From an uncultured Poribacteria bacterium (GTDB lineage Bacteria; Poribacteria; WGA-4E; WGA-3G): a stretch of DNA of 64,000 nt. Positions 27,785-47,381 of the stretch are shown piece by piece (positions within the stretch are counted from its first letter, which is position 1; the number at the start of each line of letters is the position of its first letter). Position numbers and translations under genes: made by a program. The stretch spans positions 896,001 through 960,000 of the forward strand of contig OX638351.1 in assembly GCA_951813565.1 (NCBI GenBank), written 5' to 3'. The notes beneath the pieces were generated by a model that worked only from the letters and a program-made list of their open reading frames with translations, was not told the origin of the DNA and searched no databases.

Positions 27785-29165
27785 CTGATATTTATCAAAA
27801 TTATTAAGAATCCGCTAAATATCAATACAACGAAGGTATTAGGACATGAAAATGTGTTTATTATGAAGAGTTGACTTGATTTTTTATATATGAGATGTCA
27901 TCATATATTATAAACAATAACACTATTTGATTATTTAGGAGGACATCTCATGCATCATCAGATTATCAAATCTGTGAAGTTTTTTCAACATCTTTTTTGT
28001 TCTCGTTTTCGCCGCATTAGATTACAAATCGTTGACACTGGACTTTTGTTATCGGTTTGTCATTTATTTGGTCTGGACAATCCGAACCAAGTTGCAGATG
28101 CGTTGACACTTCCCAAAGCGGGTCTTTATCGGGATCTTCACTCACTGAGCCAGTATCATTGGAAATGCTTGAATGTGCAGCTCGGATGTGCGATGGAACT
28201 TTGAGTTGATCAAAGATACCGAAGCTAAGAGTGCTTCAACACAATCTTGTCGGCGTCCTACTATCAGTGTAGATGATAGCAACGTAGATCGATATGGAAA
28301 AACAATAGCATACTGCTCAAACTGGTGGTCTAAAAAACATAATAACACCACTTGGGGCAGAACATATTAGGCATCACGATCAAGATTGGCGATATTGTTA
28401 TTCCACTCAATACACGCCTTGTTTCAAAATAAGGGCGTGGCAGGACAAAGAAACCGGTTTTTTTGTCCTGCCATGATGAAAGAAGTGTTAGATTTCTTTG
28501 ATGCCCAAAGCATTGATATCAGAAAATATCCGATCACTTTCGATTCGTGGTATGGTAGCAAGAAACTGATCGGAATCTTATCAGATTTAGGGTTTATGTC
28601 CATATTGGTTCATGGTAAAAACAACTATGTGATGACAATAAAGAACAAAAAATCTAAACTTTCGGTTCATAAGAGATCCGGACAACTGCAGCCAAAACAA
28701 TGGGGGTGCGATAAACCTGTCTGTCGTGTCCAAGCCACAAGTCCAACATTTGGTGCGTGTATTGTGCTGTTCTTTTTAGATATGGGAAAGGGACGCACAC
28801 GCTTAGTTTTTGGTAAACCACTACGCACTTGTGAAGCACTCAAGATTTGGTCTCAACACCACGGGATTGAACATTTTTGGCAGAATACGCGTGTGGTATT
28901 CTGCATGAGTTGAAATCCCGTTTGCACTTGTCCGCTATGAGTTTAGAAAGCACACAAGGGGCGTATGCGGGGCTCAGTATAAAAGTAATGAGCTACCTGG
29001 TATTGTTGCAGGTAAGCATCTTAGAGCGTCGCACATTCCATCAAGGACAACTTGAACTCACTGGACAAAGACAAATGTTACTTGAAATCATGGCGCATTT
29101 TCATGAACTAAACCCAAAAGAACCTTTATTATTACTGATATTCGACAACTTTTGAGAAATATCAG
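27785..29165 (+). mobile_element. Degenerate IS (IS701/IS4-like DDE transposase, multiply frameshifted)
   Basis: TIRs CTGATATTT(A/C)TCAAAA at 27785 and 29150-29165; ORF fragments with ISVDDS, TFDSWYGS, HHGIEHFW...LKS. Confidence 0.8.
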
Positions 29166-30375: not shown

Positions 30376-30424
30376 TATCTCTATCCTCCTTTACCTCCAA
30401 AAATTTCTCTTTTTTGCAGAATTA

Positions 30425-30452
30425 TGCAACCGTTTTCCTCCTAACTTGCGTC
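30425..30452 (+). promoter_or_regulatory. ECF-type promoter, gene 1
   Basis: TGCAAC-N18-CGTC, conserved before all four sigma genes. Confidence 0.7.
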
Positions 30453-30504
30453 ATTATAGTTTGATATATGATTTAATCAAACTATCGCTTTCTAGAGACA
30501 CTTA

Positions 30505-33486
30505 ATGAAAAATGACGATGTTGCACTTATCAGACGAATTCTTGCTGGTAATGAAACCGCTTTCGCTGAACTTGTGAAAAAGTATCAAAAACAGGTTCAC
30601 GTTCTGGCGTGGCGAAAAATCGGAGATTTCCATATCGCTGAGGACATTACCCAGGATGTCTTTCTGAAAGTGTATCAGCAACTTCATGCCCTGAAAAATC
30701 CGAAACAGTTTTCCGGATGGCTCTATGTGATAACGACACGTCTCTGTGCAACGTGCCTACGCAAAAATCGGATTCAGACGCAACCGTTGGAGGACACAGA
30801 GATAACAATGATACAGAGTGATGCCTATTCACAACATGTCGTAGAGGAGCGGGCAAACACTGCAGTTGAAACACAACGTGAAGTGGTCAAGAGACTACTC
30901 GCTAAGTTGAAAGAGAGCGAACGCACGGTGATGGCGCTCCACTATCTCGGTGAGATGACAGTTGAAGAGATCAGCAAGTTTTTAGGGGTTTCTGCAGGAA
31001 CGATTAAGAGTCGGCTACAACGTGCGCGAAACCGTTTACAAAAGGAGGAAACGATGATTAGAGAAGCACTCGACCATTTCCAAATTTCACCGAACCTGAC
31101 CGATAACATTATGCGAGAAGTTGCTCGACTTAAACCTATCGCACCTTCTGGTGGTAAGCCACTGGTGCCGTGGGTGATAGGTGCCGCAAGCGCAGTTTTG
31201 ATTGTATTAATGCTTGGCATAGGCAGTCAATACTTAACACATTTTCAGAAACCCTATAGTTTAGATGCGCAAGCTGAAACGGCGGTTGAACTCGTTGATG
31301 CGCCTATTGTGCTAAATCTTGAGGCGACGCCAGATGTTCGTCGTCAGTTTGGGAATATAAATGCACTTGGTCCAAGCGATAACAATGGACAGAAACCTGA
31401 TGAAATATTATTAGCCGCCGCGCAGTCTGAGGGAGAAGATATTGCTGCCGCCAAACAGCAGTGGATTCAGTCTGAACCTGTCAAAGGAAGTGCGGTGAAA
31501 AGTTTACTTGCGACGCCCGAGGGGGAGCTCTACGTTCTTGATCCTGATCTAAGAATCTACAAATTGCCTGTCAATGGAAAGAGGTGGCAACATATCTTTA
31601 ACGCGGGTTCATTGAAAACCTTGTGGGCAACGTCCCCACGCATCGCAAAGTGGAAAAATACCCTCTACATTATATCATTAAACGAACTCTTTGCTTCAAA
31701 TGATGATGGTAAGACATGGGATTTGGTATATTCTTGGTCTAAAGTAGGACATGCCCAGATTGCCCCAATTGAATTGATACTTACAGAACATGCGTTTTAT
31801 GCCGCTTTTGAAAGCGGCATTTTTCGTTCTGAGGATAAAGGTAAAACCTGGAAAGCACTGAGTAAAGGTTTGAGGGGAAGAATTAGTGCTTTAGTCAAGA
31901 TTCAGCATGTCCTTTTTACTGCAACAGACACTGGACTCTACCGACTCGATCCTGATCTTGAGATTTGGGAACACTTAAAGTTACCAATTTCTTTAATTGG
32001 GCGGTTAATCTCAGTTACAGCGACTGAAGAAAAGCTTTATGTTGCGGTAGAGTTGATGCCGAACGAGGTAGAGCCTCAGGATGATTCGAGGATATTCCGT
32101 TCAGGTGGTTTGGGAATATTTCGCTCAACTGACCTCGGGGACTCGTGGAAAGATATAACCCCTACAAACTCCTGGTCCCTAAAGGGTGGGGCACCCACTC
32201 TCAAACTTGTTGCTGCTGGTGAAATACTCTTGGCGATGGAACATGGTATGTTACGCTCCATAGATGGTGGAAACACATGGGCACCCTTGCAATTACCAGG
32301 AACCTCTCCTTATATGGCATCTCATTATAATGCTGTGGTGAACAAAAACACCATTTATGTTGGCAGCAGTGACGGCCTCCATTGTTCCACTAATGGTGGT
32401 AAATCCTGGGATATAGTCCGGATCACTCAGGATAAGAGGCGGCGAGGAATGCACAACATAATCGCGTATAAGGGGAACAATAAACGGCAAAACATGCCGC
32501 CGACGCTCTATGTGGGAGTTGGACAAGAGATAGTAAAAACTACCGACAAAGGCAAATCTTGGGAAACTATTAAGAGACCCAACAGAAGAGAATCAGCGTT
32601 TTTTACTCAGATGATCAAATCTGATGAGATTGTCTATACAAAAGTTAAGAATTTTGATAATATGCTTATCAATCGCGTATCTGCAGACGGTAATACGTTA
32701 GCGCCGATTCAAGGAATGCCTATTCTTGATTTAATAACATCGGACGACTTGTTTGACTGTGAGGTGCCAGATGATCAGTTGCCTCAAAAGGTCTCTGGTG
32801 AACAGTTGCAAGAAAGTTTTTCTGGCGCAACTCAGTTCTTCAAACAATTGGATCAAATATTGCCTCAATATCTGGATATATATATCCAATTAGGGTATCA
32901 AGGATCATTTGCAGTCAGTGGTGATACCTTCTATATGGAATATAACTTTAAGCTCTTCCGATGGGAACCGGGTGATACTGAATGGTACGACACCGAACAG
33001 GAGGAAACCGTTGAATTAACTTTAGACATAGCACAGAGACATCTTAAACTTGCTGTTTCGGGGAACACTGTCTACGTCGGAAAACGAGATGGACACCTCG
33101 TTGTATCGTTTGACAAGGGAACTAATTGGATTGATCTTACACCAGCGCTGCCATTTCCATTTAAAACTTTCAAAGATATCGTGTTTGCAGGTTCTACGGT
33201 ATATGTAGCGACAGACGCAGGTGTCGCTGCATCAGATGATGGAAGGCATTGGGGTACCGTCACCGATGCAGAGGGAACGAATCTCGTTATGGAGCAATTG
33301 GCTGTTGATGGCACAACGCTTTATGGTGTTACGCAAAAAACGGGTATCTATCGCTTGGAAAGCGGTACTTGGCAACAGATTGTTTCAGAGACTCCTGATA
33401 AAGCAACTTCTCTCGCTGTTGATGGGGACACGTTATACATTGGTACTCAGAACAACGGCATGCTTCATTTCAACCTTGAAAAATAA
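30505..33486 (+). CDS. ECF sigma factor fused to TM helix and Asp-box beta-propeller (copy 1)
   Basis: Region 2 (DFHIAEDITQDVF...FSGWLY), region 4 (ERTV..LHY...T.EEI..FLGVS.GTIKSRL.RAR), TM LVPWVIGAASAVLIVLMLGIG, about 8 S.D.G.TW Asp-boxes. Confidence 0.9.
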   Translation: MKNDDVALIRRILAGNETAFAELVKKYQKQVHVLAWRKIGDFHIAEDITQDVFLKVYQQLHALKNPKQFSGWLYVITTRLCATCLRKNRIQTQPLEDTEITMIQSDAYSQHVVEERANTAVETQREVVKRLLAKLKESERTVMALHYLGEMTVEEISKFLGVSAGTIKSRLQRARNRLQKEETMIREALDHFQISPNLTDNIMREVARLKPIAPSGGKPLVPWVIGAASAVLIVLMLGIGSQYLTHFQKPYSLDAQAETAVELVDAPIVLNLEATPDVRRQFGNINALGPSDNNGQKPDEILLAAAQSEGEDIAAAKQQWIQSEPVKGSAVKSLLATPEGELYVLDPDLRIYKLPVNGKRWQHIFNAGSLKTLWATSPRIAKWKNTLYIISLNELFASNDDGKTWDLVYSWSKVGHAQIAPIELILTEHAFYAAFESGIFRSEDKGKTWKALSKGLRGRISALVKIQHVLFTATDTGLYRLDPDLEIWEHLKLPISLIGRLISVTATEEKLYVAVELMPNEVEPQDDSRIFRSGGLGIFRSTDLGDSWKDITPTNSWSLKGGAPTLKLVAAGEILLAMEHGMLRSIDGGNTWAPLQLPGTSPYMASHYNAVVNKNTIYVGSSDGLHCSTNGGKSWDIVRITQDKRRRGMHNIIAYKGNNKRQNMPPTLYVGVGQEIVKTTDKGKSWETIKRPNRRESAFFTQMIKSDEIVYTKVKNFDNMLINRVSADGNTLAPIQGMPILDLITSDDLFDCEVPDDQLPQKVSGEQLQESFSGATQFFKQLDQILPQYLDIYIQLGYQGSFAVSGDTFYMEYNFKLFRWEPGDTEWYDTEQEETVELTLDIAQRHLKLAVSGNTVYVGKRDGHLVVSFDKGTNWIDLTPALPFPFKTFKDIVFAGSTVYVATDAGVAASDDGRHWGTVTDAEGTNLVMEQLAVDGTTLYGVTQKTGIYRLESGTWQQIVSETPDKATSLAVDGDTLYIGTQNNGMLHFNLEK

Positions 33487-33672
33487 TGTAGTAAAACATA
33501 TAATCACTGCAAACCCTACCTGTAGGCATGCTTTGTAAGCGCGCCGTTAGGCAATCTTTAGCACTGATATAGGCGCGTTTACAAAACGCGCCTACCAATA
33601 AATCGGGCGGACAAAATCCTCCTACAAGAGTGCTTCGCGACAATTGAATACCTCTGCCTATCAACCCACATC

Positions 33673-33700
33673 TTGACAAACCCTCCCGATTTGGTAGAAT
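33673..33700 (+). promoter_or_regulatory. Sigma70-type promoter upstream of ECF gene 2
   Basis: TTGACA-N16-TAGAAT with TG extended -10; copies at 36954-36981 and 40246-40273. Confidence 0.65.
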
Positions 33701-33747
33701 AGTATTTCACTGTTTCTAACCATCCAATTTGTAAACATGCAGAATTA

Positions 33748-33775
33748 TGCACCAGTTTCCCTCCTAACATGCGTC
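33748..33775 (+). promoter_or_regulatory. ECF-type promoter, gene 2
   Basis: TGCACC-N18-CGTC. Confidence 0.7.
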
Positions 33776-33801
33776 ACTATAGCGCGATCGGAGGTAATTC
33801 C

Positions 33802-36800
33802 ATGAAAACTACTGATGTTGAGCTCATCAACCGCATTCTCAATGGCGATGATACTGCCTTCACTGAACTTGTGAAAAAGTACCAAAAACCTGTTCACGCG
33901 CTTGTGTGGCGTAAAATTGGAGATTTCCACATCGCCGAGGAAATTACACAGGATACATTCCTAAAAGCATATCAAGGATTAGCGGGACTGAAGAAGCCCC
34001 AAAGTTTTGCAAGTTGGCTTTATGTGATCGCCGCAAACAATTGTAGCACGTGGCTGCGTAAAAAGCGTGTGCGGACGCAGCCGCTGGAAGAGACAAGCAA
34101 CTCACAGTCTGGAAAAGCGACGTACTCGCAATATGTGATTGAAGAAAACGAGCGGACAGCGGTAGAAGCACAGCGTGAAGTCGTTAAGAAGTTGCTTGCG
34201 AAACTTCCAGAGAGTGAACGCACGATTATCACGCTACATTATTTTAGCGAGATGTCCAGTGCAGAGATTGGTGCGTTTTTAGGTGTATCAGCAAATACGA
34301 TTCGGAGTCGCCTCCGCAGAGCACAACAACGTTTACAAAAGGAGGAAACGATGATTAGAGAAGCACTCGACCATTTCCAAATTTCACCGAACCTGACCGA
34401 TAACATTATGCGAGAAGTTGCTCGACTTAAACCTATCGCACCTTCTGGTGGTAAGCCACTGGTGCCATGGGCAATTGCTGCTTCAAGTGCTATTTTGATT
34501 GTGTTAATGCTCGGTATAGGTAGTCGATACTTAGCGCTTTTTCAGAAACCTTATAGTTTGGATGCTCATGCTGAAACGACGGTTGAACTCGTTGATGCGC
34601 CTATTGTGCTAAATCTTGAGGCGAAGCCAGATGTGCGAAATCTTCTTGGGAGTCCAAATGCTCTGAGTAAAAACGATAATCGTGGAGAGAAACCTGATGC
34701 GGTTTTATTGGCTGCCGCGCAGTCTGAGGAAGAGGATATTGCTGTTTCCAAACAGCAGTGGATTCAGGCTGAACCGATTAAAGGCAGCCCACTGATGAGC
34801 ATATTGGGAACACCTGAAGGCGATATATATGTCCTTGGTGATGAATTAAGTTTCTATAAATTACCTGCCAATGGAAAGCAGTGGCAACATATCTCTGACG
34901 TAGGTTCACTGAAAACTTGGTGGACACCGAGGCCTCCTATCGCAAAATGGAAAAATACCCTTTACATGATACCAACTAACAAACTCTTTGCTTCAATAGA
35001 TGATGGTAAGACATGGGATTTACTCTACTCATGGCAGGAAGAAAAATATTGGACTCCGATTGAATTGGTGCTAACAGAGGATGCGTTTTATGCCGCTTTT
35101 GAAAGCGGCATTTTTCGTTCTGAGGATAAAGGTAAAACCTGGAAAGCACTGAGTAAAGGATTGAGGGGAAGAATTAGTGCTTTAGTCGAGATTCAGCATG
35201 TCCTTTTTACTGCAACAGACACTGGACTCTACCGACTCGATCCTGATCTTGAGATTTGGGAACGCTTAAAGTTACCTGCTCCAGAAATCGGTAGGATTTT
35301 TTCTGTAGCAGCGACTGAAGATAAGTTGTATGTTGCAGCAGAGTTTAGTTGGGACGGACAAGTAGATCCTCGTAAAGTAGAACGAGGACTGGAGCGTGGT
35401 TGGTGGATATTCCGCTCAACGGACCTCGGTGATTCGTGGGATGATATAACGCCGACAAACGCTTGGCCCGTAAACGGATGGCCACCCGGAATCGAACTTA
35501 TTGCTGTAGGTGAAACACTTCTGGCGATGGAAGATGGTATGGTACGCTCTATTGATGGAGGAGATAAATGGATGCCGCCGCAGACACCCCGCACTTCCCC
35601 TTCAACGATTAGTGGATTGCCTACTGTCGCTTTAAACGAACGGACTTTTTATGTGCATAGCTGGGACGGTCTCCATCGTTCTACTGACGGAGGGAAATCA
35701 TGGAACAAGGTGAATATCCCTAAGGAGAAGGAAACGAATCCAATAGACAATTTAATCGTCCATCACGGAGGTGATAAAGGGGGAAAAATGCTTTCGACCC
35801 TCTACACGACATCTGGACTTGGACACGGGAAATGGATAAAAAAAATAGTAAAAACTACCGACAAAGGCGAATCTTGGGAAACTATTAAGATGGAAATACC
35901 AATGGGAACGCCTAAAAGAGAAGAACAACCGAGTATTAGTCAGATAGTCAAATCTGGTAGTGTCATTTATGCCAAAGGTGGAATTCCAGGTAACGTAAAT
36001 AATCGTTTCTATCGTGTATCTGATGACAATAGACTTGTCCTGCTTCAAGGAATACCCACCCTTGATTCAAAGTCATTAAGAAATCAAGTGTTATTTAGGA
36101 GTCAACCTATTGAAAATCTTTCTGTTGAATATCTGCAAGAAAACTTTTCTGGCGCAACCCAATTCTTCAAACAGTTAGCACAAGGAGATGCTCAGAATCA
36201 TAGAGATCGCATGAGGTTAAGTGACCTTCTTAAGCATGGGTTTGAGGGGACTTTTGCGGTGAGTGATGATACATTCTATATGGAATATCATTTCAAACTC
36301 TTCCGATGGAAACCGGGTGAGGCAGAATGGTACGACACCGGACAGGAAGAAACCATTGAATTGACTATGGACGTGGCAAGAAAAAATCTCAAACTTGCTG
36401 TTTCAGTGGATACTGTCTACGTTGGAAAACGGGATGGACACCTCGTCGTATCGTTTGATAGAGGAACTAATTGGATTGATCTTACGCCAGCGCTGCCGTT
36501 TCCATTTAAAACTTTCAAAGAGATCGTATTTGCGGATTCTACGGTGTATGTAGCGACAGATGCTGGTGTCACTACATCGGATGATGGGAGAACTTGGCGT
36601 ACCATCACTGATGCAGAGGGGACCAATCTCGTCATGGAACATTTAGCTGCTGATGGTACAAAGGTTTATGGCGTTACTGAAAACACGGGTGCCTATCGCT
36701 TGGAAAGCGGTGCTTGGGAAAGTGTTGTTTCTGAGATGCCTGATAACGTAACTTCTCTTGCTGTAGATGGAAATACGGTATATGTAGGCACAGAATACAA

Positions 36801-36831
36801 CGAAGTGCTTCATTTTAATCTTAAAAAATAA
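33802..36831 (+). CDS. ECF sigma factor-TM-beta-propeller fusion (copy 2)
   Basis: Same architecture; GGAGG before ATG 33802. Confidence 0.9.
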   Translation: MKTTDVELINRILNGDDTAFTELVKKYQKPVHALVWRKIGDFHIAEEITQDTFLKAYQGLAGLKKPQSFASWLYVIAANNCSTWLRKKRVRTQPLEETSNSQSGKATYSQYVIEENERTAVEAQREVVKKLLAKLPESERTIITLHYFSEMSSAEIGAFLGVSANTIRSRLRRAQQRLQKEETMIREALDHFQISPNLTDNIMREVARLKPIAPSGGKPLVPWAIAASSAILIVLMLGIGSRYLALFQKPYSLDAHAETTVELVDAPIVLNLEAKPDVRNLLGSPNALSKNDNRGEKPDAVLLAAAQSEEEDIAVSKQQWIQAEPIKGSPLMSILGTPEGDIYVLGDELSFYKLPANGKQWQHISDVGSLKTWWTPRPPIAKWKNTLYMIPTNKLFASIDDGKTWDLLYSWQEEKYWTPIELVLTEDAFYAAFESGIFRSEDKGKTWKALSKGLRGRISALVEIQHVLFTATDTGLYRLDPDLEIWERLKLPAPEIGRIFSVAATEDKLYVAAEFSWDGQVDPRKVERGLERGWWIFRSTDLGDSWDDITPTNAWPVNGWPPGIELIAVGETLLAMEDGMVRSIDGGDKWMPPQTPRTSPSTISGLPTVALNERTFYVHSWDGLHRSTDGGKSWNKVNIPKEKETNPIDNLIVHHGGDKGGKMLSTLYTTSGLGHGKWIKKIVKTTDKGESWETIKMEIPMGTPKREEQPSISQIVKSGSVIYAKGGIPGNVNNRFYRVSDDNRLVLLQGIPTLDSKSLRNQVLFRSQPIENLSVEYLQENFSGATQFFKQLAQGDAQNHRDRMRLSDLLKHGFEGTFAVSDDTFYMEYHFKLFRWKPGEAEWYDTGQEETIELTMDVARKNLKLAVSVDTVYVGKRDGHLVVSFDRGTNWIDLTPALPFPFKTFKEIVFADSTVYVATDAGVTTSDDGRTWRTITDAEGTNLVMEHLAADGTKVYGVTENTGAYRLESGAWESVVSEMPDNVTSLAVDGNTVYVGTEYNEVLHFNLKK

Positions 36832-37029
36832 TGTTAGTAAAATCTATAATAACTGCAAACCTTACTTGTAGGCGCGCTTTGTAAGCGCGCCGTGCAATAA
36901 TGTGTCATTAATTGTAAAATTCACTATAAATATCCTACCAATCAACCCACATCTTGACAAACCCTCCTGATTTGGTAAAATAGGACTTCATAGTCTCGGA
37001 TCATCCCTCTTAGGATTTTTTTTGCGTTA

Positions 37030-37057
37030 TGCACCCGTTTTGCACCTAACCCGCGTC
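37030..37057 (+). promoter_or_regulatory. ECF-type promoter, gene 3
   Basis: TGCACC-N18-CGTC. Confidence 0.7.
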
Positions 37058-37147
37058 TTTTAAAGTACAGGCACAATGTTAGGGATGTAATCTTTTCACT
37101 AAACGCAGGGAAAACGCTCAAAGTTTTCGCTTATCAGAAGGTGACTT

Positions 37148-40123
37148 ATGAAAAACAACGATATTGATTTGGTCCATCGCACCCTTGATGGTGATGAAAC
37201 TGCTTTTTCTACACTTGTTGAAAAATATCAAAAGCAGGTTCATGCGCTCGCTTGGCGGAAAATAGGTGATTTCCATATTGCTGAAGAAATTACACAAGAC
37301 ACCTTCCTGAAAGCATATCAAAAACTCGCAACTCTGAAAAAACCGCATCGTCTTGCTGGATGGCTTTATGTGATCGCGACACGCTGCTGCCAAGCTTGGC
37401 TACGAAAAAAGCAGATGCAGACCGAATCATTAGAGGAAATAGATAGTGAAAAGATAGAGCCAGAGGCGTATTCCCGATATGTTGCGGAAGAAGAAGCGAA
37501 GGTAACCGTTGAGGCACAACGCAGAATTGTTAAAAAGCTTCTCGCTACATTGCCAGAGAGTGAGCGCACTGTTATCACACTTCACTACTTCGGTGACATG
37601 ACGTGTGAAAAAATGGGCGAGTTTTTAGGTGTATCCGCAAACACGATTAAAAGTCGACTCCGCCGTGCGCGGAACCGCTTGAAAAAGGAGGAACCGATGA
37701 TCCGAGAAGCAATTAGCAACTTCCAAATTTCACCGAACCTAACCGATAACGTTATGCAAGAGGTCAATCGTCTAAAACCTGCAGCGCCTTCTGGCAGCAA
37801 GCCCTTTGTGCCGTGGACAATTGCTGCAGCAAGTGCTATTTTGATTGTGCTGATGCTTGGGGTGGGCAGTCAATACTTAGTCAGTTTTCAAAAACCTTAT
37901 AGTTTGGATGCACAGGATGAGACGACGGTTGAGCTTGTTGATACTCCCGTTGTGCTAAATCTTGAGACGAAGCCAGATGTGCGTCGGGAGATTGGGAGTC
38001 CAAATGCACTTGGTAAAAGTGATAACAACGGTCAGAAGCCTGATGAAGTTTTGTTAGCTGCTGCACAGGCGGAAGGAGAAGACATTTCTGTACCCAAACA
38101 GCAGTGGATTCAGTCTGAACCGCTCATAGGAAGTGCGGTAGAAAATCTATTTGCAACCGATGATGGACAACTCTACACTGTTCTTGATGCGCACATATAC
38201 AAATGGCAAAATGATAATACAGGATGGCAGCAAGTTAGCAATGACATCAGAGATTATCATGATAGGCTGAATGAAACTACTATTATAACTGATGTTCCTA
38301 TAGCAAAGTGGAACAATACCCTTTATATTGTTTTAAAAAACTTACTATTGGCTTCAAAAGATGATGGCAAGACATGGAAAATAGTCCATTCATGGACACC
38401 TGATTATTTTTCCCCGCGTGAATTGTTGTTTACTGAACAAGCGTTTTGGGTAATTTTTTCCAAAGGTGCTTTCCGTTCTGAGGATAAAGGTAAGACATGG
38501 CAGAATGTAGACGATGAATTATTTAAAGGTTACATCTTCTTTATAGCCATACAAAATACGGTATTTGCTGGATCATACACCGGGTTGTATCGCTGGAACA
38601 CCGGCAGCTGGGAACGTATAGAATTACCTGTGCCTGAAGCAATGATAGTCGCCAAAGCCGCAGCCACCAAAGATCGCTTGTATGTAAAGGCATCATTAGG
38701 TTATGATTTTTATGATGATAAAGCAGTACGGGAGGGGCGACAGCGGACTTGGTGGATATTTCGATCAAATGATTTGGGAAATTCGTGGAAAGATATTACA
38801 CCGACAAATGCTTGGCCCCTAAAAGCCCAGTCACCCGATATCCAACTTGTTGCTGCTGGTGAAACAGTTCTGTTGATGGGACGGGGTATTGTGCGTTCTA
38901 CCGATGGAGGAGATACTTGGTTCCCCTTTCAAGCGTCTCATACTCTCCCTACAGATATAAAGCGTTATTGGCCTTCTGTGGCATTAAACGAACATGTATT
39001 TTACGCTATAGGGAGAGGTCTACACCGTACCACCGATGGTGGCAAATCATGGAGCAAGGTTAATATCACTCGGAATAGGAGATGGCTTGGAATACAAAAC
39101 TTACTCGTGCATAAGCAGAACGAAAGAATAGAAAGCATGCAGCCGCCTCTTTATGGGCAAGCTGGGAGTGGGATAGTAAAAACAACTGACAAGGGCAAGA
39201 CTTGGAAGACTGTTCAGGTAGAAATACCTATGACCGCTCCTATAAGAGAAGACCCGCCATGGATTACTCAGATCATTGTATCTGATGGTGTTATCTATGC
39301 TAAAAGTAGAAGTCAATACCCAATCGGAGAATTGCGTTACTTTCGCGTATCTGAAGATGGGAACACATTAGTACCTATTCAAGGCATACCTACCTTCGAC
39401 TCGAGGGAATTAAGAGAGCATCTGCGTAAGTCTCAAAATCTCTCTCTTGAAACGTTGCAAGAAGGTTTTTCTGGAGCGACCCAATTCTTCAAATGGTTGC
39501 TCCAAGTAACTCCACAAGAGCAGGATACACTCATCCAAGTAGGGCTTCAGGGACCGTTTGCGGTTAGTGGTGATACGTTCTATATGGAGTATAACCTTAA
39601 ACTCTTTCGATGGGAATCTGGTGATACAGAATGGCAAGACATCGGACAAGAAGTAACTTCACCTAGCAGAGGGAAAGCGCTCAAACTTGCAGCATCAGGG
39701 AACACTGTTTACGTCGGGAAACGGGACGGTCACCTTGTTGTATCGTATGATAGGGGAAACAATTGGATTGATCTCACCCCAGCTCTGCCATTTCCTGTTA
39801 AAAATTACAATCAGATTCTGGTTGCTGGGTCCACCGTGTATGTAGCAACGGATGCTGGTATCATTACATCAGATGATGGGAGAATTTGGCGTCCTGTCAC
39901 CGATTCAGAGGGGGCCAATCTTATCATGGAACGCTTGGCTGTTGATGGCACAACGCTTTATGGCATCTACAGAGATACAAGTATCTACCGCTTGGAAGAC
40001 GGCGCCTGGGAACAGGTCGTCTCAGAGATACCTGATAACGTAACGTCTCTTGCTGTTGATGGGGACACGTTATACATTGGTACTCAGAACAACGGCATGC
40101 TTTATTTCACCCTTGAAGAATAA
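37148..40123 (+). CDS. ECF sigma factor-TM-beta-propeller fusion (copy 3)
   Basis: Same architecture; AGGTG RBS. Confidence 0.9.
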   Translation: MKNNDIDLVHRTLDGDETAFSTLVEKYQKQVHALAWRKIGDFHIAEEITQDTFLKAYQKLATLKKPHRLAGWLYVIATRCCQAWLRKKQMQTESLEEIDSEKIEPEAYSRYVAEEEAKVTVEAQRRIVKKLLATLPESERTVITLHYFGDMTCEKMGEFLGVSANTIKSRLRRARNRLKKEEPMIREAISNFQISPNLTDNVMQEVNRLKPAAPSGSKPFVPWTIAAASAILIVLMLGVGSQYLVSFQKPYSLDAQDETTVELVDTPVVLNLETKPDVRREIGSPNALGKSDNNGQKPDEVLLAAAQAEGEDISVPKQQWIQSEPLIGSAVENLFATDDGQLYTVLDAHIYKWQNDNTGWQQVSNDIRDYHDRLNETTIITDVPIAKWNNTLYIVLKNLLLASKDDGKTWKIVHSWTPDYFSPRELLFTEQAFWVIFSKGAFRSEDKGKTWQNVDDELFKGYIFFIAIQNTVFAGSYTGLYRWNTGSWERIELPVPEAMIVAKAAATKDRLYVKASLGYDFYDDKAVREGRQRTWWIFRSNDLGNSWKDITPTNAWPLKAQSPDIQLVAAGETVLLMGRGIVRSTDGGDTWFPFQASHTLPTDIKRYWPSVALNEHVFYAIGRGLHRTTDGGKSWSKVNITRNRRWLGIQNLLVHKQNERIESMQPPLYGQAGSGIVKTTDKGKTWKTVQVEIPMTAPIREDPPWITQIIVSDGVIYAKSRSQYPIGELRYFRVSEDGNTLVPIQGIPTFDSRELREHLRKSQNLSLETLQEGFSGATQFFKWLLQVTPQEQDTLIQVGLQGPFAVSGDTFYMEYNLKLFRWESGDTEWQDIGQEVTSPSRGKALKLAASGNTVYVGKRDGHLVVSYDRGNNWIDLTPALPFPVKNYNQILVAGSTVYVATDAGIITSDDGRIWRPVTDSEGANLIMERLAVDGTTLYGIYRDTSIYRLEDGAWEQVVSEIPDNVTSLAVDGDTLYIGTQNNGMLYFTLEE

Positions 40124-40321
40124 TGTTAGTAAAATCTATAATAACTGCAAACCTTACTTGTAGGCGCGCTTTGTAAGCGCGCCGTGCAATAATGTGTCAT
40201 TAATTGTAAAATTCACTATAAATATCCTACCAATCAACCCACATCTTGACAAACCCTCCTGATTTGGTAAAATAGGACTTCATAGTCTCGGATCATCCCT
40301 CTTAGGATTTTTTTTGCGTTA

Positions 40322-40349
40322 TGCACCCGTTTTGCACCTAACCCGCGTC
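40322..40349 (+). promoter_or_regulatory. ECF-type promoter, gene 4
   Basis: TGCACC-N18-CGTC; identical to the gene 3 upstream region. Confidence 0.7.
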
Positions 40350-40439
40350 TTTTAAAGTACAGGCACAATGTTAGGGATGTAATCTTTTCACTAAACGCAG
40401 GGAAAACGCTCAAAGTTTTCGCTTATCAGAAGGTGACTT

Positions 40440-43400
40440 ATGAAAAACAACGATATTGATTTGGTCCATCGCACCCTTGATGGTGATGAAACTGCTTTTT
40501 CTACACTTGTTGAAAAATATCAAAAGCAGGTTCATGCGCTCGCTTGGCGGAAAATAGGTGATTTCCATATTGCTGAAGAAATTACACAAGACACCTTCCT
40601 GAAAGCATATCAAAAATTGGCAACATTGAAAAAACCGCACCGTCTTGCCGGATGGCTTTATGTGATCGCAACACGCTGCTGCCAAGCTTGGCTACGAAAA
40701 AAGCAGATGCAGACCAAATCATTAGAGGAAATAGATAGTGAAAAGATAGAGCCAGAGGCGTATTCCCGATATGTTGCGGAAGAAGAAGCGAAGGTAACCG
40801 TTGAGGCACAACGCAGAATTGTTAAAAAGCTTCTCGCTACATTGCCAGAGAGTGAGCGCACTGTTATCACACTTCATTACTTCGGTGACATGACGTGTGA
40901 AAAAATGGGCGAGTTTTTAGGTGTATCCGCAAACACGATTAAAAGTCGACTCCGCCGTGCGCGGAACCGCTTGAAAAAGGAGGAACCGATGATCCGAGAA
41001 GCAATTAGCAACTTCCAAATTTCACCGAACCTAACCGATAACGTTATGCAAGAGGTCAATCGTCTAAAACCTGCAGCACCTTCTGTCAGTAAACCTTTGG
41101 TGCCGTGGGCAATTGCTGCTTCAAGTGCAGTTTTGATTATGTTGATGCTTGGAATTGGCAGTCAATACTTAACACATTTTCAGAAGCCTTATAGTTTAGA
41201 TGCTCATGCTGAAAGGATGGTTGAACTCGTTGATGCACCTATTTTCCTGAATCTTGAAGTAAAACCGAGTACACGAAATCAACTTGTGAAGGCAAATGCA
41301 TTCGATAAAACTGATAATAATGGTCAGAAACCTGATGCGGTTTTATTGGCTGCCGCGCAGTCTGAGGAAGAGGATATTGCTGTTTCCAAACAGCAGTGGA
41401 TTCAGGCTGAACCGATTAAAGGCAGCCCACTGATGAGCATATTGGGAACACCTGAAGGCGATATATATGTCCTTGGTGATGAATTAAGTTTCTATAAATT
41501 ACCTGCCAATGGAAAGCAGTGGCAACATATCTCTGACGTAGGTTCACTGAAAACTTGGTGGACACCGAGGCCTCCTATCGCAAAATGGAAAAATACCCTT
41601 TACATGATACCAACTAACAAACTCTTTGCTTCAATAGATGATGGTAAGACCTGGGATTTACTCTACTCATGGCAGGAAGAAAAATATTGGACTCCGATTG
41701 AATTGGTGCTAACAGAGGATGCGTTTTATGCCGCTTTTGAAAGCGGCATTTTTCGTTCTGAGGATAAAGGTAAAACCTGGAAAGCACTGAGTAAAGGATT
41801 GAGGGGAAGAATTAGTGCTTTAGTCGAGATTCAGCATGTCCTTTTTACTGCAACAGACACTGGACTCTACCGACTCGATCCTGATCTTGAGATTTGGGAA
41901 CGCTTAAAGTTACCTGCTCCAGAAATCGGTAGGATTTTTTCTGTAGCAGCGACTGAAGATAAGTTGTATGTTGCAGCAGAGTTTAGTTGGGACGGACAAG
42001 TAGATCCTCGTAAAGTAGAACGAGGACTGGAGCGTGGTTGGTGGATATTCCGCTCAACGGACCTCGGTGATTCGTGGGATGATATAACGCCGACAAACGC
42101 TTGGCCCGTAAACGGATGGCCACCCGGAATCGAACTTATTGCTGTAGGTGAAACACTTCTGGCGATGGAAGATGGTATGGTACGCTCTATTGATGGAGGA
42201 GATAAATGGATGCCGCCGCAGACACCCCGCACTTCCCCTTCAACGATTAGTGGATTGCCTACTGTCGCTTTAAACGAACGGACTTTTTATGTGCATAGCT
42301 GGGACGGTCTCCATCGTTCTACTGACGGAGGGAAATCATGGAACAAGGTGAATATCCCTAAGGAGAAGGAAACGAATCCAATAGACAATTTAATCGTCCA
42401 TCACGGAGGTGATAAAGGGGGAAAAATGCTTTCGACCCTCTACACGACATCTGGACTTGGACACGGGAAATGGATAAAAAAAATAGTAAAAACTACCGAC
42501 AAAGGCGAATCTTGGGAAACTATTAAGATGGAAATACCAATGGGAACGCCTAAAAGAGAAGAACAACCGAGTATTAGTCAGATAGTCAAATCTGGTAGTG
42601 TCATTTATGCCAAAGGTGGAATTCCAGGTAACGTAAATAATCGTTTCTATCGTGTATCTGATGACAATAGACTTGTCCTGCTTCAAGGAATACCCACCCT
42701 TGATTCAAAGTCATTAAGAAATCAAGTGTTATTTAGGAGTCAACCTATTGAAAATCTTTCTGTTGAATATCTGCAAGAAAACTTTTCTGGCGCAACCCAA
42801 TTCTTCAAACAGTTAGCACAAGGAGATGTTCAGCAACATAGAGTACGTCTTGAAGAACTTATCCATCTGGGGTTTCGGGGGACTTTTGCGGTTAGTGATG
42901 ATACATTCTATATGGAGTATAACCTTAAACTCTTTCGATGGGAATCTGGTGATACAGAATGGCAAGACATCGGACAAGAAGTAACTTCACCTAGCAGAGG
43001 GAAAGCGCTCAAACTTGCAGCATCAGGGAACACTGTTTACGTCGGGAAACGGGATGGACACCTCGTCGTATCGTTTGATAGAGGAACTAATTGGATTGAT
43101 CTTACGCCAGCGCTGCCGTTTCCATTTAAAACTTTCAAAGAGATCGTATTTGCGGATTCTACGGTGTATGTAGCGACAGATGCTGGTGTCACTACATCGG
43201 ATGATGGGAGAACTTGGCGTACCATCACTGATGCAGAGGGGACCAATCTCGTCATGGAACATTTAGCTGCTGATGGTACAAAGGTTTATGGCGTTACTGA
43301 AAACACGGGTGCCTATCGCTTGGAAAGCGGGACTTGGGAAAAGGTTGTTTCAGAGATACCTGATAACGTAACTTCTCTTGCTGTTGATGGAGAGACATTA

Positions 43401-43451
43401 TATATAGGCACGCAAAGCAACGGTATGCTTTATTACAATTTTGAAGAATAA
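40440..43451 (+). CDS. ECF sigma factor-TM-beta-propeller fusion (copy 4, chimera of copies 2 and 3)
   Basis: Same architecture; blocks near-identical to genes 2 and 3. Confidence 0.9.
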   Translation: MKNNDIDLVHRTLDGDETAFSTLVEKYQKQVHALAWRKIGDFHIAEEITQDTFLKAYQKLATLKKPHRLAGWLYVIATRCCQAWLRKKQMQTKSLEEIDSEKIEPEAYSRYVAEEEAKVTVEAQRRIVKKLLATLPESERTVITLHYFGDMTCEKMGEFLGVSANTIKSRLRRARNRLKKEEPMIREAISNFQISPNLTDNVMQEVNRLKPAAPSVSKPLVPWAIAASSAVLIMLMLGIGSQYLTHFQKPYSLDAHAERMVELVDAPIFLNLEVKPSTRNQLVKANAFDKTDNNGQKPDAVLLAAAQSEEEDIAVSKQQWIQAEPIKGSPLMSILGTPEGDIYVLGDELSFYKLPANGKQWQHISDVGSLKTWWTPRPPIAKWKNTLYMIPTNKLFASIDDGKTWDLLYSWQEEKYWTPIELVLTEDAFYAAFESGIFRSEDKGKTWKALSKGLRGRISALVEIQHVLFTATDTGLYRLDPDLEIWERLKLPAPEIGRIFSVAATEDKLYVAAEFSWDGQVDPRKVERGLERGWWIFRSTDLGDSWDDITPTNAWPVNGWPPGIELIAVGETLLAMEDGMVRSIDGGDKWMPPQTPRTSPSTISGLPTVALNERTFYVHSWDGLHRSTDGGKSWNKVNIPKEKETNPIDNLIVHHGGDKGGKMLSTLYTTSGLGHGKWIKKIVKTTDKGESWETIKMEIPMGTPKREEQPSISQIVKSGSVIYAKGGIPGNVNNRFYRVSDDNRLVLLQGIPTLDSKSLRNQVLFRSQPIENLSVEYLQENFSGATQFFKQLAQGDVQQHRVRLEELIHLGFRGTFAVSDDTFYMEYNLKLFRWESGDTEWQDIGQEVTSPSRGKALKLAASGNTVYVGKRDGHLVVSFDRGTNWIDLTPALPFPFKTFKEIVFADSTVYVATDAGVTTSDDGRTWRTITDAEGTNLVMEHLAADGTKVYGVTENTGAYRLESGTWEKVVSEIPDNVTSLAVDGETLYIGTQSNGMLYYNFEE

Positions 43452-43621
43452 ACCAAATCAATGCTGAATGCGACAAATGCCGTACATGCATTAGCGTTTA
43501 GCATTCGGTGTCTCATAATAGATGTCTACTTCTCCTACAAGAAGATAGTCGCGACCAGGAGGTCGCTCCTACAGGAAGAAGTTTGGACTTATAAAGTACG
43601 TCTACAACGTACAAATTGACC

Positions 43622-46600
43622 TTAAAGTTCCGCGCTGACAGTCATCTCTAAGCGATGTTCAGGTTTGCGCTGTTTTGTTGAGAGAAGGCGGTAATTGAGT
43701 CTAAATAGTAGATCGGTAAATTTGCGTAACCTATAATCCGCAGTGGCGCGCACTTCATGGCTGATGCCTTCGTAAAAATAGTATTGTGCGAAAGGGATAC
43801 CGCCATCGCTTTTACCATAGCCGAGTGTATGGTTTACATCAATACGACCCTTACCGAAAATACTATATGTTAAGCGATTTTCAAAGGAAAAGGTACGTGT
43901 TTTTGCTGTAGACTCTTCGTCAAGTTTTTCTATGTCAGTTGTGCGTTTGTATCCTCCGATACCACTCCATCGTATCGAGCGACTCAGTTCATACTGGAGT
44001 TTTAATTCTGTTATCTGTTCAAATTGACGGAGGTCGGAGATGGGTGTTGATGAAAATAAATCAGGATCGGTAACCGTTCCCTTTTCTGTTCCATCGGGGT
44101 TGGAAACCCCTCCTAAGTCTATAAAGTTGAGTTGGCTATATTTTTCTGTTTCGCGGCGTTGCTCCCAGTTTGCACCGACTGAGAGACGTTGCGTTGGATT
44201 TACTGAGAAAGCAACATCCCACGTTCTATGATTTCTCAGCCGTTCTTGTGTGTTAATCCGTCGATTGAGTGTGCGTCCAGTCCTAAGATTGACTTCAAAA
44301 CTGAACAGAGGTGAAGGTGAAAATTCAACCCGATGATGTTGGTTAACGCGTCCGAAAAGCGTTTGTGAACCTTGTAAGCTTTGGAGTAGATAGAGGGATA
44401 TAGTATCTTCTGCTTCCTGTTCCTCTGTTAACCATAGGCGTGTCTGGATTCTGAGTGCATTTAAGAACCACGTAAATGGTTGTCGGTTTTTGGTTGTCGG
44501 TTTTTGGTTGTCGGTGTTAGTGGTTGGGGGAAGATTACCTCGCCCCATGAAATCTGTTCTGGTGGAATTGCGTTGATTTCGGGCGCGGCGGGCGAAAAAC
44601 TGACGCGGTTGGACACGGAGTCGAAAGGCAGCATCAACCGCTGTTGTCGGTCTATCCCCTACATTCTGGTAAATTTTGATGTACGTTCCTTCCTCCGGAT
44701 CTTCTACATAGCGCAAATCATCTAATCTGACATAATACCCTTCACCGGGCTGGATTCTATTTCCAGTGAGCGGATGAATATCGGTGTAGATTTCACGACG
44801 TTGTGTTGTCAGTTTTTTATCCAATTCATAAGTAATTTCAGCATCAATCGCACGACTGAACGGTGTTAATTGGATTGTTGCATCCGCTAATTGTGTTGTT
44901 GTATCTGTGCCACGTTCAGAATGCGCCTTCACCATGCGGCGTGCGAGATTTGTTTTCATATTTATCCATTGTCCTTGCTGTGAAAAGACTCCGGCTTTCC
45001 ATGTGCGTGCTGTGGTAGACCGCATCCAATCAGAAATTCCTAAAGTTTCGCCATCAAGTGTCAATAAAGGTTTTTTAGCAAAAGCCTGTTCAAGTTCGTA
45101 ACTTGTATGAATGGAAGCCCATTTAAAGTCAACCAAGTTGACGCGTCCAGAAGTTCGGTTACGTCTGCGGTTGCGCGCAGCAGTGTAATCATCAATGGAG
45201 GCGAATCGATCAAAAGTGCCAACAAATTCAAAAGGAGAAAGAAGGTAAGATAGACTCCCCTCTTGCCTTGATTTTCGGATATTTTCTTCTGTGCCTGCAG
45301 ACTCCTCGCCCGGTTCTATGCGGGATGTGCTGCGATAATCATTCCAACGAAGATTCGGCAATTTTGCCAGAATCGAATTACGCGAAAGATCGCTTTCCAC
45401 AGAACTCGGTCTCCGTCCATCGCCACTTTGATATTGCGCGGATGGTCGGAATAAATTTTCAGCTTGCGAGGACATATTAGAAAAAGTTGAACTTCTGCTT
45501 GAGCGTGGCGCGAAATTTGCCCCCCAATTGAAATTATTACGCCGTGTTGTTTGTCCTTCAACAACATCCTCAATTGTCCTGCCGCCACCCAAATCAAATC
45601 GTAGCCATTGGGACGGCAGCAATTTGAAGTCAAGATTTAATGTTTGCTCATCGGACGCTTGCGAGATAGAACTCGGGTCAAACAGAAACGCGTCCTCAAA
45701 CCCTTCTGTCGCGTATTGGGTCCCGTAGCGATCGCGAGTTCTATTACTACTTGACGCGCCAACAGGTAAAAAATTGGCATCCATTGCCCGCACATCAAGG
45801 TTTCCTATTAGTTTAGGACGCAGCTTGTTAGACCATGTTGGAAAATCCCAACTTGTGTAACCAATTAGTTTCCAAGCCTGACTTGCCTCCTTCCTGTCTA
45901 CGGTAGAATAGGTATTTTTATCAACAGCGCTAAAAGCGAGTTCTCCATCAACCCATGTCTGTTCGGCAAAATTTAGACGACTCTCTAATCCCCACACCGT
46001 ATGTTTCTGCGGCGGCGTAAGGAGGAAACCGTCGCCATCTGGGTCCAGCATATTTTGGCGGAGTGCGTCCAAATCATCGTCATCAAAAAGGACTAAAGCC
46101 TGCTCAGGATCGTCCAAATCCGCTTCCACAGCGTAAGAAGCACCGAGTGACAACCATTCCCCGGGCAACCTGAAAACGTTATTGACGCCGTAAAGATTTT
46201 GTTGATATACAAGGTCTTCAGGAATGTATTCAAAATCAACGCGGATTACGTCGTTGCTTGTTATGAGATGTTTGCTGTTGAATTCAATAATTGGATCGCC
46301 GTATTCACGGATGATGTAATCGTTATTTTCACCGCGCCGCATCTTTTCACCGTTCAGCCAAACGATTTCACTCCCTGCTTTGACAATAACGAACTGGTTA
46401 TCTACATCAAGCCGATATTCACTGCGACCTTCCTCACCACGAATTACTTTGCTTGTGGACTGCCCCTTTGGAAGCGCGCTCGGAATGAGATGGAATTTTC
46501 CCCAGTCAAAATCACCTTCGACCTTGACTCCCTCAAGCGCACGTGGAAAAAAGATAAATTCAGATGGTCCCAAGGTGGCGTCGAAATCGCCTAAAGTGCC

Positions 46601-47338: not shown

Positions 47339-47381
47339 CCTTCTACCTTTCCATTCTTGCACCTATCCATTCCTATTTTTC

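Follow-up and report, generated by a model that had tools for sequence, protein, structure and literature searches.

The 64,000-nt window analysed here (uncultured Poribacteria bacterium, assembly GCA_951813565.1, contig OX638351.1, positions 896,001 to 960,000 of the forward strand; coordinates are those of the window unless a locus is named) holds a tandem array of four genes, each encoding an extracytoplasmic function (ECF) sigma factor joined in one chain to a tether, a predicted transmembrane (TM) helix and a predicted double Asp-box propeller. The reading we favour, with moderate confidence, is that of a one-chain sigma-anti-sigma receptor, tethered at the membrane, freed by proteolysis and reading its own promoter, with a sigma-less isoform and recombining sensors.

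In the proposed mechanism, the tether would hold sigma shut at the inner membrane, and the outward propeller would sense a signal that leads to cutting by a periplasmic Prc-type and then an intramembrane RseP-type protease. The freed sigma would transcribe from the motif ATGCAMC-N17/18-CGTCAY, chiefly genes of its own family and a small number of envelope genes, giving positive feedback. The sigma-less isoform would act as a free anti-sigma-like receptor that buffers or resets the switch, and may be left over as a relic from an ancestral pair of sigma and anti-sigma genes, of which it perhaps remains a working part, while unequal recombination and gene conversion among tandem copies would reshuffle sigma heads and sensor domains. 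Topology, tether inhibition, cleavage, promoter use and internal translation are what we infer beyond the observed architecture, motif and mosaicism.

Four co-oriented, intact open reading frames (ORFs) of ~1000 aa each occupy positions 30505-43451 of the + strand (ORF list of the window):

Gene 1, 30505..33486 (+), 993 aa (ORF call, Pfam, hydropathy, AlphaFold model): ECF sigma, aa 1-183; tether, 184-220; TM helix, 221-243; juxtamembrane/stalk, 244-318; double Asp-box propeller, 319-993.
Gene 2, 33802..36831 (+), 1009 aa, architecture as gene 1; ORF caller start at 33769.
Gene 3, 37148..40123 (+), 991 aa, architecture as gene 1.
Gene 4, 40440..43451 (+), 1003 aa, architecture as gene 1; a mosaic of genes 2 and 3.

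For gene 2, the start is most likely 33802 rather than 33769, because the -10 box of the shared promoter motif is overlapped by the ATG at 33769, and because a GGAGG site accompanies 33802, which also lines up with the starts of the other three genes. Pfam placed sigma70_r2 at residues 23-89 and r4 at 126-180 in 4/4 proteins, and gave Sortilin-Vps10/BNR/PSII_BNR matches in the C-terminal part. A single hydrophobic segment was found per protein (residues 221-239, mean Kyte-Doolittle 2.1-2.4; runner-up segment 1.1-1.4), corresponding to the following features:

Predicted TM helix of gene 1, 31165..31233 (+).
Predicted TM helix of gene 2, 34462-34530 (+).
Predicted TM helix of gene 3, 37808-37876 (+).
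Predicted TM helix of gene 4, 41100-41168 (+).

The juxtamembrane QKPYSLDA..E..VELVD motif is present in 4/4 proteins, and the Asp-box [ST]x[DN]xGxxW occurs in 7, 8, 8 and 8 copies, compared with 0.02-0.04 expected and a maximum of 2 in 1000 shuffles per protein. No anti-sigma ORF was found between or beside the four genes, the spacers holding only ATG frames of 44-74 aa. An earlier note on this DNA had described four tandem ECF proteins with sigma2 and sigma4, a linker, a TM helix, the QKPYSLDA motif and about 8 Asp-boxes, with no adjacent anti-sigma gene; Pfam, hydropathy, motif counts and spacer contents agree with this, and its description of one-component, membrane-tethered ECF factors with a large propeller domain is supported.

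The array represents 4 of 29 paralogues of one sigma clade in the genome, which is one 5.43-Mb contig (profiles built from the four genes). By Pfam and helix prediction, 13 carry a helix and Asp-boxes, 5 a helix and WD40, and 1 a helix and an unclassified domain; the remainder comprise 1 Asp-box member whose tether is broken by a stop and 9 soluble fusions without a helix (Asp-box, WD40, M61 peptidase, thioredoxin, Gfo/Idh/MocA, crystallin-like, HTH or unclassified). WD40 occurs in 6 paralogues in all. Two damaged paralogues were noted (L002:2990-6187 and L015:4004-6910): one is separated from its promoter motif by an insertion-sequence-like stretch, and in the other the tether is interrupted by an in-frame stop, so that the 214-aa sigma and the helix/propeller part lie in separate frames. 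Among genus relatives, 17/18 hold 9-50 profile matches each. The tether-helix-juxtamembrane module was found in 144/176 phylum genomes (108/111, 9/11 and 26/29 in three families, 0/24 in eight others), using a single-sequence query that may miss distant forms. The outer parts of the best 135 of 150 listed 50%-identity representatives were 48 Asp-box, 42 WD40 and 44 other, with 1 lacking a helix; 42 of the 44 others were scanned and gave LRR, Kelch, TPR plus trypsin, C-type lectin, LamG, Reg_prop, PD40, GHL15, transglutaminase, Ig-like and redoxin domains, while a large share matched no family. The closest loci in named genomes belong to Candidatus Poribacteria in 60/61 cases and to an 'uncultured bacterium' in 1; confinement to Poribacteria covers these close relatives, named distant rows and the within-phylum search, and the family may also occur in other phyla. 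Two sequencing runs holding part of this DNA are labelled sponge metagenome.

The sigma heads consist of sigma2 and sigma4 only, with no sigma1 or sigma3 (TIGR02937, 93-104 bits, cut-off 42.9). Among solved sigmas, SigW of B. subtilis is the closest (E 2e-25 by single sequence, 1e-36 by profile); its alignment stops at about residue 181-182, and the SigW equivalog models fall below cut-off (NF007223/TIGR02948, 103-114 bits vs 209, and 96-105 vs 243). An AlphaFold model of aa 1-250 (83 sequences) gave confident sigma domains (predicted template modelling score, pTM, 0.69) and predicted tether helices at 184-191 and 198-209, the latter with a predicted local distance difference test (pLDDT) of 80-85. 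The modelled sigma2/sigma4 arrangement is closed and nearest to anti-sigma-bound CnrH and SigW (CnrH 4cxf_A: Z 15.0, root-mean-square deviation 3.2 Å over 150; Foldseek TMt 0.75), compared with deviations of 22-29 Å to polymerase-bound sigmas. CnrY inhibits its sigma with two short helices (PMC7406223; here and below, published sources are cited for the portions covered), and the modelled tether, Cys-free in 4/4 genes (184-220), would fit a built-in two-helix, CnrY-like anti-sigma. Prediction of a complex of sigma (1-182) with the tether (184-220) scored 0.12 (mark 0.32), and an ESM Atlas search with residues 184-330 returned no usable match.

The topology is probably N-in/C-out with the propeller outward, because charge is biased in the positive-inside sense (mean K+R 3.2 before the helix vs 1.5 after; 183 proteins) and because paralogues carry typical exported domains. 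Release by intramembrane proteolysis is suggested because RseP-family and Prc proteases are present (M50 in a 563-aa frame, E 4e-72; a second M50; two Prc above cut-off) and because IutY of Pseudomonas putida, a fused sigma/anti-sigma, is activated by Prc and RseP cleavage (PMC5411451). Both proteases are near-universal (14/14 and 8/14 control genomes above cut-off), so their presence lends weak support.

Membrane-bound one-component regulators of the ToxR/CadC kind act while tethered, and the proteins here may likewise stay whole, the ligand shifting the helix and lifting the tether off a sigma that acts from the membrane. This arrangement would accord with no PrsW-type protease having been found in the genome (95% complete) and with tether-bearing paralogues that have no helix (an Asp-box and a WD40 form among the 9 soluble fusions); the latter must work without intramembrane proteolysis, which shows that a tether switch is workable without such cleavage and counts against the proteolytic model. 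We nevertheless regard activity without cleavage as unlikely: the helix is rich in Ala/Ser/Gly, as RseP substrate helices often are, the ~12 unstructured residues between tether helix and membrane in the aa 1-250 model would leave little room for polymerase, and IutY, the only tested helix-bearing fused sigma/anti-sigma, needs RseP (PMC5411451).

The motif ATGCAMC-N17/18-CGTCAY lies 50-120 nt upstream of each of the four genes, and genes 2-4 additionally have an 11/12 sigma70-type match ~75 nt upstream of it, which is likely a basal promoter:

ECF-type motif of gene 1, 30424..30454 (+), ATGCAAC-N18-CGTCAT.
ECF-type motif of gene 2, 33747..33777 (+), ATGCACC-N18-CGTCAC.
ECF-type motif of gene 3, 37029..37059 (+), ATGCACC-N18-CGTCTT.
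ECF-type motif of gene 4, 40321..40351 (+), identical to that of gene 3.
Sigma70-type match of gene 2, 33673..33700 (+), TTGACA-16-TAGAAT with a TG extension.
Sigma70-type match of gene 3, 36954..36981 (+).
Sigma70-type match of gene 4, 40246..40273 (+).

Across 25 sites, box positions are mostly 84-100% conserved and the mid-spacer 36-52%. A first profile, circular in being trained on this genome's genes, scored at least 14 bits before 25/29 family genes vs 20/4259 other genes, and 116/164 members from other genomes reached the same score. With a cross-genome profile (43 distinct sites, other genomes), 26 sites of at least 20 bits were found here, 25 of them intergenic in a genome that is 15.8% intergenic. 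Eighteen of the 26 stand directly before intact family genes, and 3 more before a remnant, an insertion-sequence-interrupted member and an adjacent WD40 gene. The motif is likely the promoter that the family sigmas read themselves; a bipartite, usually autoregulated target promoter is typical of ECF (group 4) sigma factors. Few candidates lie outside the family: a MoxR-DUF58-BatA operon, ABC transporter genes, carboxypeptidase-regulatory proteins and single-helix proteins. The operon (L121:270-4618 (+); MoxR AAA ATPase, DUF58, BatA domain) has a 33-bit motif, among the strongest outside the family, and is a candidate shared output; single-helix frames without a Pfam match, located after family genes or after the motif (L007:2097-3753 (-), L126:781-1602 (+), L122:6132-6905 (-)), are possibly another target family.

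A second start appears to be encoded at the end of the sigma domain. In 4/4 genes the codons for Lys180-Glu181-Glu182 read AAGGAGGAA, 5 bases ahead of the in-frame ATG 184:

Internal ribosome-binding site AAGGAGG + ATG (Met184) of gene 1, 31042..31056 (+).
Internal ribosome-binding site + ATG (Met184) of gene 2, 34339..34353 (+).
Internal ribosome-binding site + ATG (Met184) of gene 3, 37685..37699 (+).
Internal ribosome-binding site + ATG (Met184) of gene 4, 40977..40991 (+).

Lys180 is AAG in 150/163 members (genome fraction 0.28), Glu181 is GAG in 172/180 (genome fraction 0.27), and residue 184 is ATG in 169/183; at both 85% and 75% dereplication, Lys180 and Glu181 have the highest G-ending fractions among Lys/Glu columns of residues 2-215. 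AAGGAG is used in 14/19 KEE members dereplicated at 75% vs 13/196 KEE sites of the genome. Site and start codon co-occur (160/162 vs 13/21, Fisher p 3e-7, with kin that are not independent), and distant-family members in register have GGAG and then ATG 8-9 nt on in 8/9 cases. At -11.8 kcal/mol, the predicted internal pairing is stronger than that of any native start in the array (-2.9 to -10.8) and lies beyond the 5th percentile for starts across the genome. The site likely yields a sigma-less, anti-sigma-like isoform (tether, helix and propeller), and may be the relic of a coupled sigma/anti-sigma pair that lost its stop codon, an origin suggested because the internal start coincides with the end of SigW homology, two residues ahead of the ATG. 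Nothing on point about such a start was found in the literature.

The internal site being stronger than the native start in 4/4 genes, the main product could be the sigma-less membrane protein, serving in surface binding, as a decoy or in host interaction, with the sigma head chiefly a self-amplifier that raises family protein levels when one member is engaged or damaged; most strong motif sites stand before family genes (18/26, plus 3 family-related), and outer domains across the family are of repeat and lectin types. This too we doubt, slightly more than the tethered-sigma alternative. The tether module shares its frame with sigma sequence in 238 of 246 frames, among which no regular stand-alone sigma-less gene was found: those lacking sigma look broken or cut by a locus edge, one starting at the Met184 position without a Shine-Dalgarno (SD) site. 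Sigma is moreover the most constrained part of the protein (median dN/dS, the ratio of nonsynonymous to synonymous substitution rates, 0.09), and targets outside the family exist in the MoxR-DUF58-BatA operon and ABC transporter genes.

The ectodomain of gene 1 was modelled by AlphaFold (11-sequence alignment; mean pLDDT 68, ectodomain mostly 70-90, residues 181-317 low) as an all-beta double propeller. The top Foldseek matches are GH74 double propellers (E 2e-20, TMt 0.48, 13% identity), in agreement with the propeller proposed in the earlier note; sensor domains of the Bacteroides hybrid two-component proteins BT4673/BT4663 follow (E 1e-18 to 4e-16). By VIA, Z was 21.6-21.8 over 555-573 residues to GH74, tied with many other propellers. 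GH74 carries a catalytic Asp in the first blade, at a position expected here from its motif rather than mapped on a structure, and among 110 members no Asp is conserved in that blade; conserved Asp/Glu lie mostly at Asp-box or C-terminal structural positions. Because no first-blade Asp is conserved, we read the modelled ectodomain as a binding domain rather than an enzyme, and because the fold is of the GH74/hybrid-two-component-sensor type, a glycan is our leading guess for the ligand. An active glycoside hydrolase (GH74- or sialidase-like) with signalling coupled to catalysis would draw on GH74 xyloglucanases being the top fold matches and on scores of 93-121 bits to NCBIfam NF045728, 'F510_1955 family glycosylhydrolase'; it is improbable, since NF045728 has a cut-off of 175 that those scores do not reach, the proteins share 12-16% identity with GH74, the first-blade position expected for the catalytic Asp varies freely, and WD40, LRR and Kelch take the propeller's place behind the same tether.

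Starting in the upstream spacer and up to residue 212, gene 4 matches gene 3 (exact runs of 493, 45, 160 and 200 nt); it is its own over residues 213-295 (248 nt between the borrowed parts), and equals gene 2 over residues 296-796, with one mismatch in 1503 nt (41326..42828 (+) vs 34688-36190); residues 811-859 are gene-3-like and 876-969 gene-2-like. Because gene 4 is a mosaic, its propeller is 93% identical to that of gene 2. Genes 1 and 2 share an identical 137-nt tract in the tether (31033..31169 (+) = 34330-34466), which is likely a conversion tract. In sequencing run X5, a 719-nt contig without mismatch crosses both gene 4 junctions at depth 2-3; in run X6, a contig crosses the first junction and the propeller allele shows 39 differences in 532 nt; in run X2, contigs break at repeat borders. 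One junction-bearing run is possibly the source sample. The 1246-aa gene that flanks the array occurs in 18 genus relatives, of which 17 were compared: 13 have an array (2-5 sigma-bearing copies in view), 3 have none and 1 reaches a contig end. Asp-box and WD40 members alternate in these arrays, and the heads of the WD40 members are 79-87% identical to those of gene 1 or 2. Near-identical tracts of at least 100 nt occur in 3/13 related arrays (101-272 nt, all within residues 153-284); as these are shorter, the case in this genome is the most extensive seen. That assembly from mixed strains produced the four-copy array and mosaic gene 4 as an artefact, as the long exact repeats between genes 2/4 and 3/4, the metagenome-type source genome and the uneven read depth over the genes in some runs might suggest, has a negligible chance of being right given the 248 nt that belong to gene 4 itself, the read contigs across the junctions (X5 both, X6 the first) with X2 contigs breaking at repeat borders, and arrays at the same locus in 13/16 informative relatives.

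Exchange of sensors extends across the family. Among 126 full-length Asp-box members, 19/28 supported splits of the sigma tree are contradicted by one in the propeller tree that is also supported. Where sigma identity is at least 85% (412 pairs), 79% of the pairs fall below 55% identity over residues 319-800. The claim that the propellers are far more divergent than the sigma part holds family-wide (mean identity over 110 members: sigma 68%, tether 72%, residues 319-800 38%, 801-993 58%), but within the array the gap is modest (50-62% vs 63-65%). Identity, tree conflict and outer-domain variety together favour the receptor-repertoire idea of the earlier note, in that ectodomains diversify faster than sigma and are exchanged. 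Median dN/dS is 0.09 for sigma, 0.18 for the tether, 0.29 for residues 319-800 and 0.21 for 801-993, and the variable propeller part is under relaxed, not diversifying, selection.

Several further observations weigh against the one-chain receptor as proposed. Diversifying selection was not detected in the variable propeller (dN/dS 0.29, 0/36 pairs above 1 in a pairwise test). The motif profile matches 0/16 distant-family loci (best 7.5 bits), and the upstream motifs of paralogues were partly inherited along with the gene. In this genome, AAGGAGG with ATG/GTG is found in 11/19 helix-bearing paralogues, 4 have no start codon there, and the internal site is absent or weak in ~40% of them; the codon signal is weaker at deep divergence (4/7 at 70% dereplication), members are related, gene conversion homogenises the tether stretch, and the internal SD-like site could instead pause ribosomes. 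The closed conformation was modelled without a sigma-only control and may be an AlphaFold default for ECFs. A sequence search of solved structures with tether plus helix matched no anti-sigma and gave a chance helix match only.

A wider picture, which we offer tentatively, is that each genome has tens of receptors recombining as a repertoire: one frame would give both a sigma-bearing and a free anti-sigma receptor, all heads would share one promoter, found mainly before the receptor genes, and reshuffled outer domains (Asp-box, WD40, LRR, Kelch, lectin) would sample host-matrix glycans or proteins, making up a self-amplifying recognition system in a sponge symbiont. Within a widespread lineage of uncultured symbionts, the fusion design forms the main expanded signalling family, and accounts for a share of the repeat domains usually taken as host-interaction proteins; its promoter and its internal start are both open to testing, and it comes with swaps of heads and sensors made by nature. 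Should the fusions work as proposed, they would provide a ready modular chassis, in which the outer domain is exchanged and one promoter serves as readout, and a handle on what Poribacteria sense inside the sponge.

The array is neighboured by PhyH/LamG genes and, downstream, by the convergent, unclassified 1246-aa gene (43622-47362 (-)), which is without a Pfam family, matched in 31/31 genomes of the order, essentially single copy, and borders the array in most genus relatives. Upstream of gene 1, interrupted frames at 27950-29150 (+) resemble a decayed transposase by eye (a 175-aa piece has no Pfam match). Short palindromic repeats lie in the spacers at 33520-33600, 36860-36900, 40150-40190 and 43525-43580; the copy at 43547-43581 is common to many unrelated contigs, which suggests a dispersed, repetitive extragenic palindrome (REP)-like element. 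Elsewhere in the genome, a 1435-aa frame (L019:4001-8305 (+)) joins ECF-like sigma2/sigma4 to a complete FtsZ (tubulin and FtsZ_C), PHP and DNA polymerase III alpha, and a 406-aa frame (L011:4275-5492 (+)) is a fusion of ECF-like sigma with a tubulin/FtsZ GTPase.

A prior description of Poribacteria ECF fusions was not found in the open literature, subscription papers and ECF Hub tables lying outside this scope; sigma, ECF, BNR, WD40 and propeller are all absent from the main text of PMC8546597, and 'Poribacteria' from the portion of the PMC7826278 supplement covered. Proteins fusing a sigma to its anti-sigma, such as IutY and SCO4117, have been described, but there are few of them and they have seen little testing. 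The architecture parallels ECF57 and IutY, yet is placed in no ECF group, being set apart by the described features and not by group HMMs. ECF57 already combines a long C-terminal extension bearing TM helices, in some members with a WD40-like beta-propeller, with a proposed release from the membrane and no separate anti-sigma (PMC7826278). It differs in being 100% Planctomycetes, with two helices on average and no conserved promoter, whereas the family here is from Poribacteria, with one helix, a conserved motif and mostly Asp-box propellers outside. The invariant cysteine pair of ECF57 in sigma2 and sigma4 compares with Cys81 in 190/196 members and Cys153 in 49/196 (absent from genes 1 and 2), in columns that may not correspond.

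IutY (ECF243) is likewise one polypeptide with a cytosolic sigma, one helix and a periplasmic part, and serves as the tested case after which the Poribacteria fusions likely function. It is a single gene of FecI/FecR type, its periplasmic part is small, and it requires a TonB-dependent receptor in the outer membrane (PMC5411451), whereas the proteins here have a SigW-like sigma, a 680-aa double propeller as the likely direct sensor, tens of shuffled paralogues and an internal start; no FecR domain was matched at E 0.01 in 4/4 proteins, and no TonB-dependent receptor is adjacent. In Actinobacteria, ECF48, ECF52 (SCO4117) and ECF53 also fuse sigma to an anti-sigma-like extension with a TM helix, in some ECF52 with an outside carbohydrate-binding domain (PMC7826278, PMC8999054), but have a zinc finger and extensions up to ~400 aa, compared with a Cys-free tether and a ~810-aa extension here.

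BT4663/BT4673 and GH74 share the modelled double propeller of seven-bladed type outside the membrane, with heparin/heparan-sulphate sensing given for BT4663 by its PDB title; the output is a kinase/regulator or catalysis, and at 10-16% identity the likeness is in fold only. Among groups of other phyla with separate sigma and anti-sigma genes, ECF30 and ECF245 (SigV and SigW, Firmicutes) include the closest solved sigma, SigW (ECF245), which has a separate zinc-binding anti-sigma at +1. The ECF30 promoter, TGCAACA/CGTC, resembles the motif; those described for ECF51 and ECF266 are GCAACCG/GCGTGTC and TGCAACA. In ECF266 and ECF128s2 the anti-sigma is a protein of its own, with one helix and, outside the membrane, a beta-propeller or BNR/sortilin domain (PMC7826278), and such pairs may be viewed as the split counterpart of the Poribacteria fusion design, for which the shared promoter motif, the internal start, mosaic gene 4 and the family size go beyond the earlier note.

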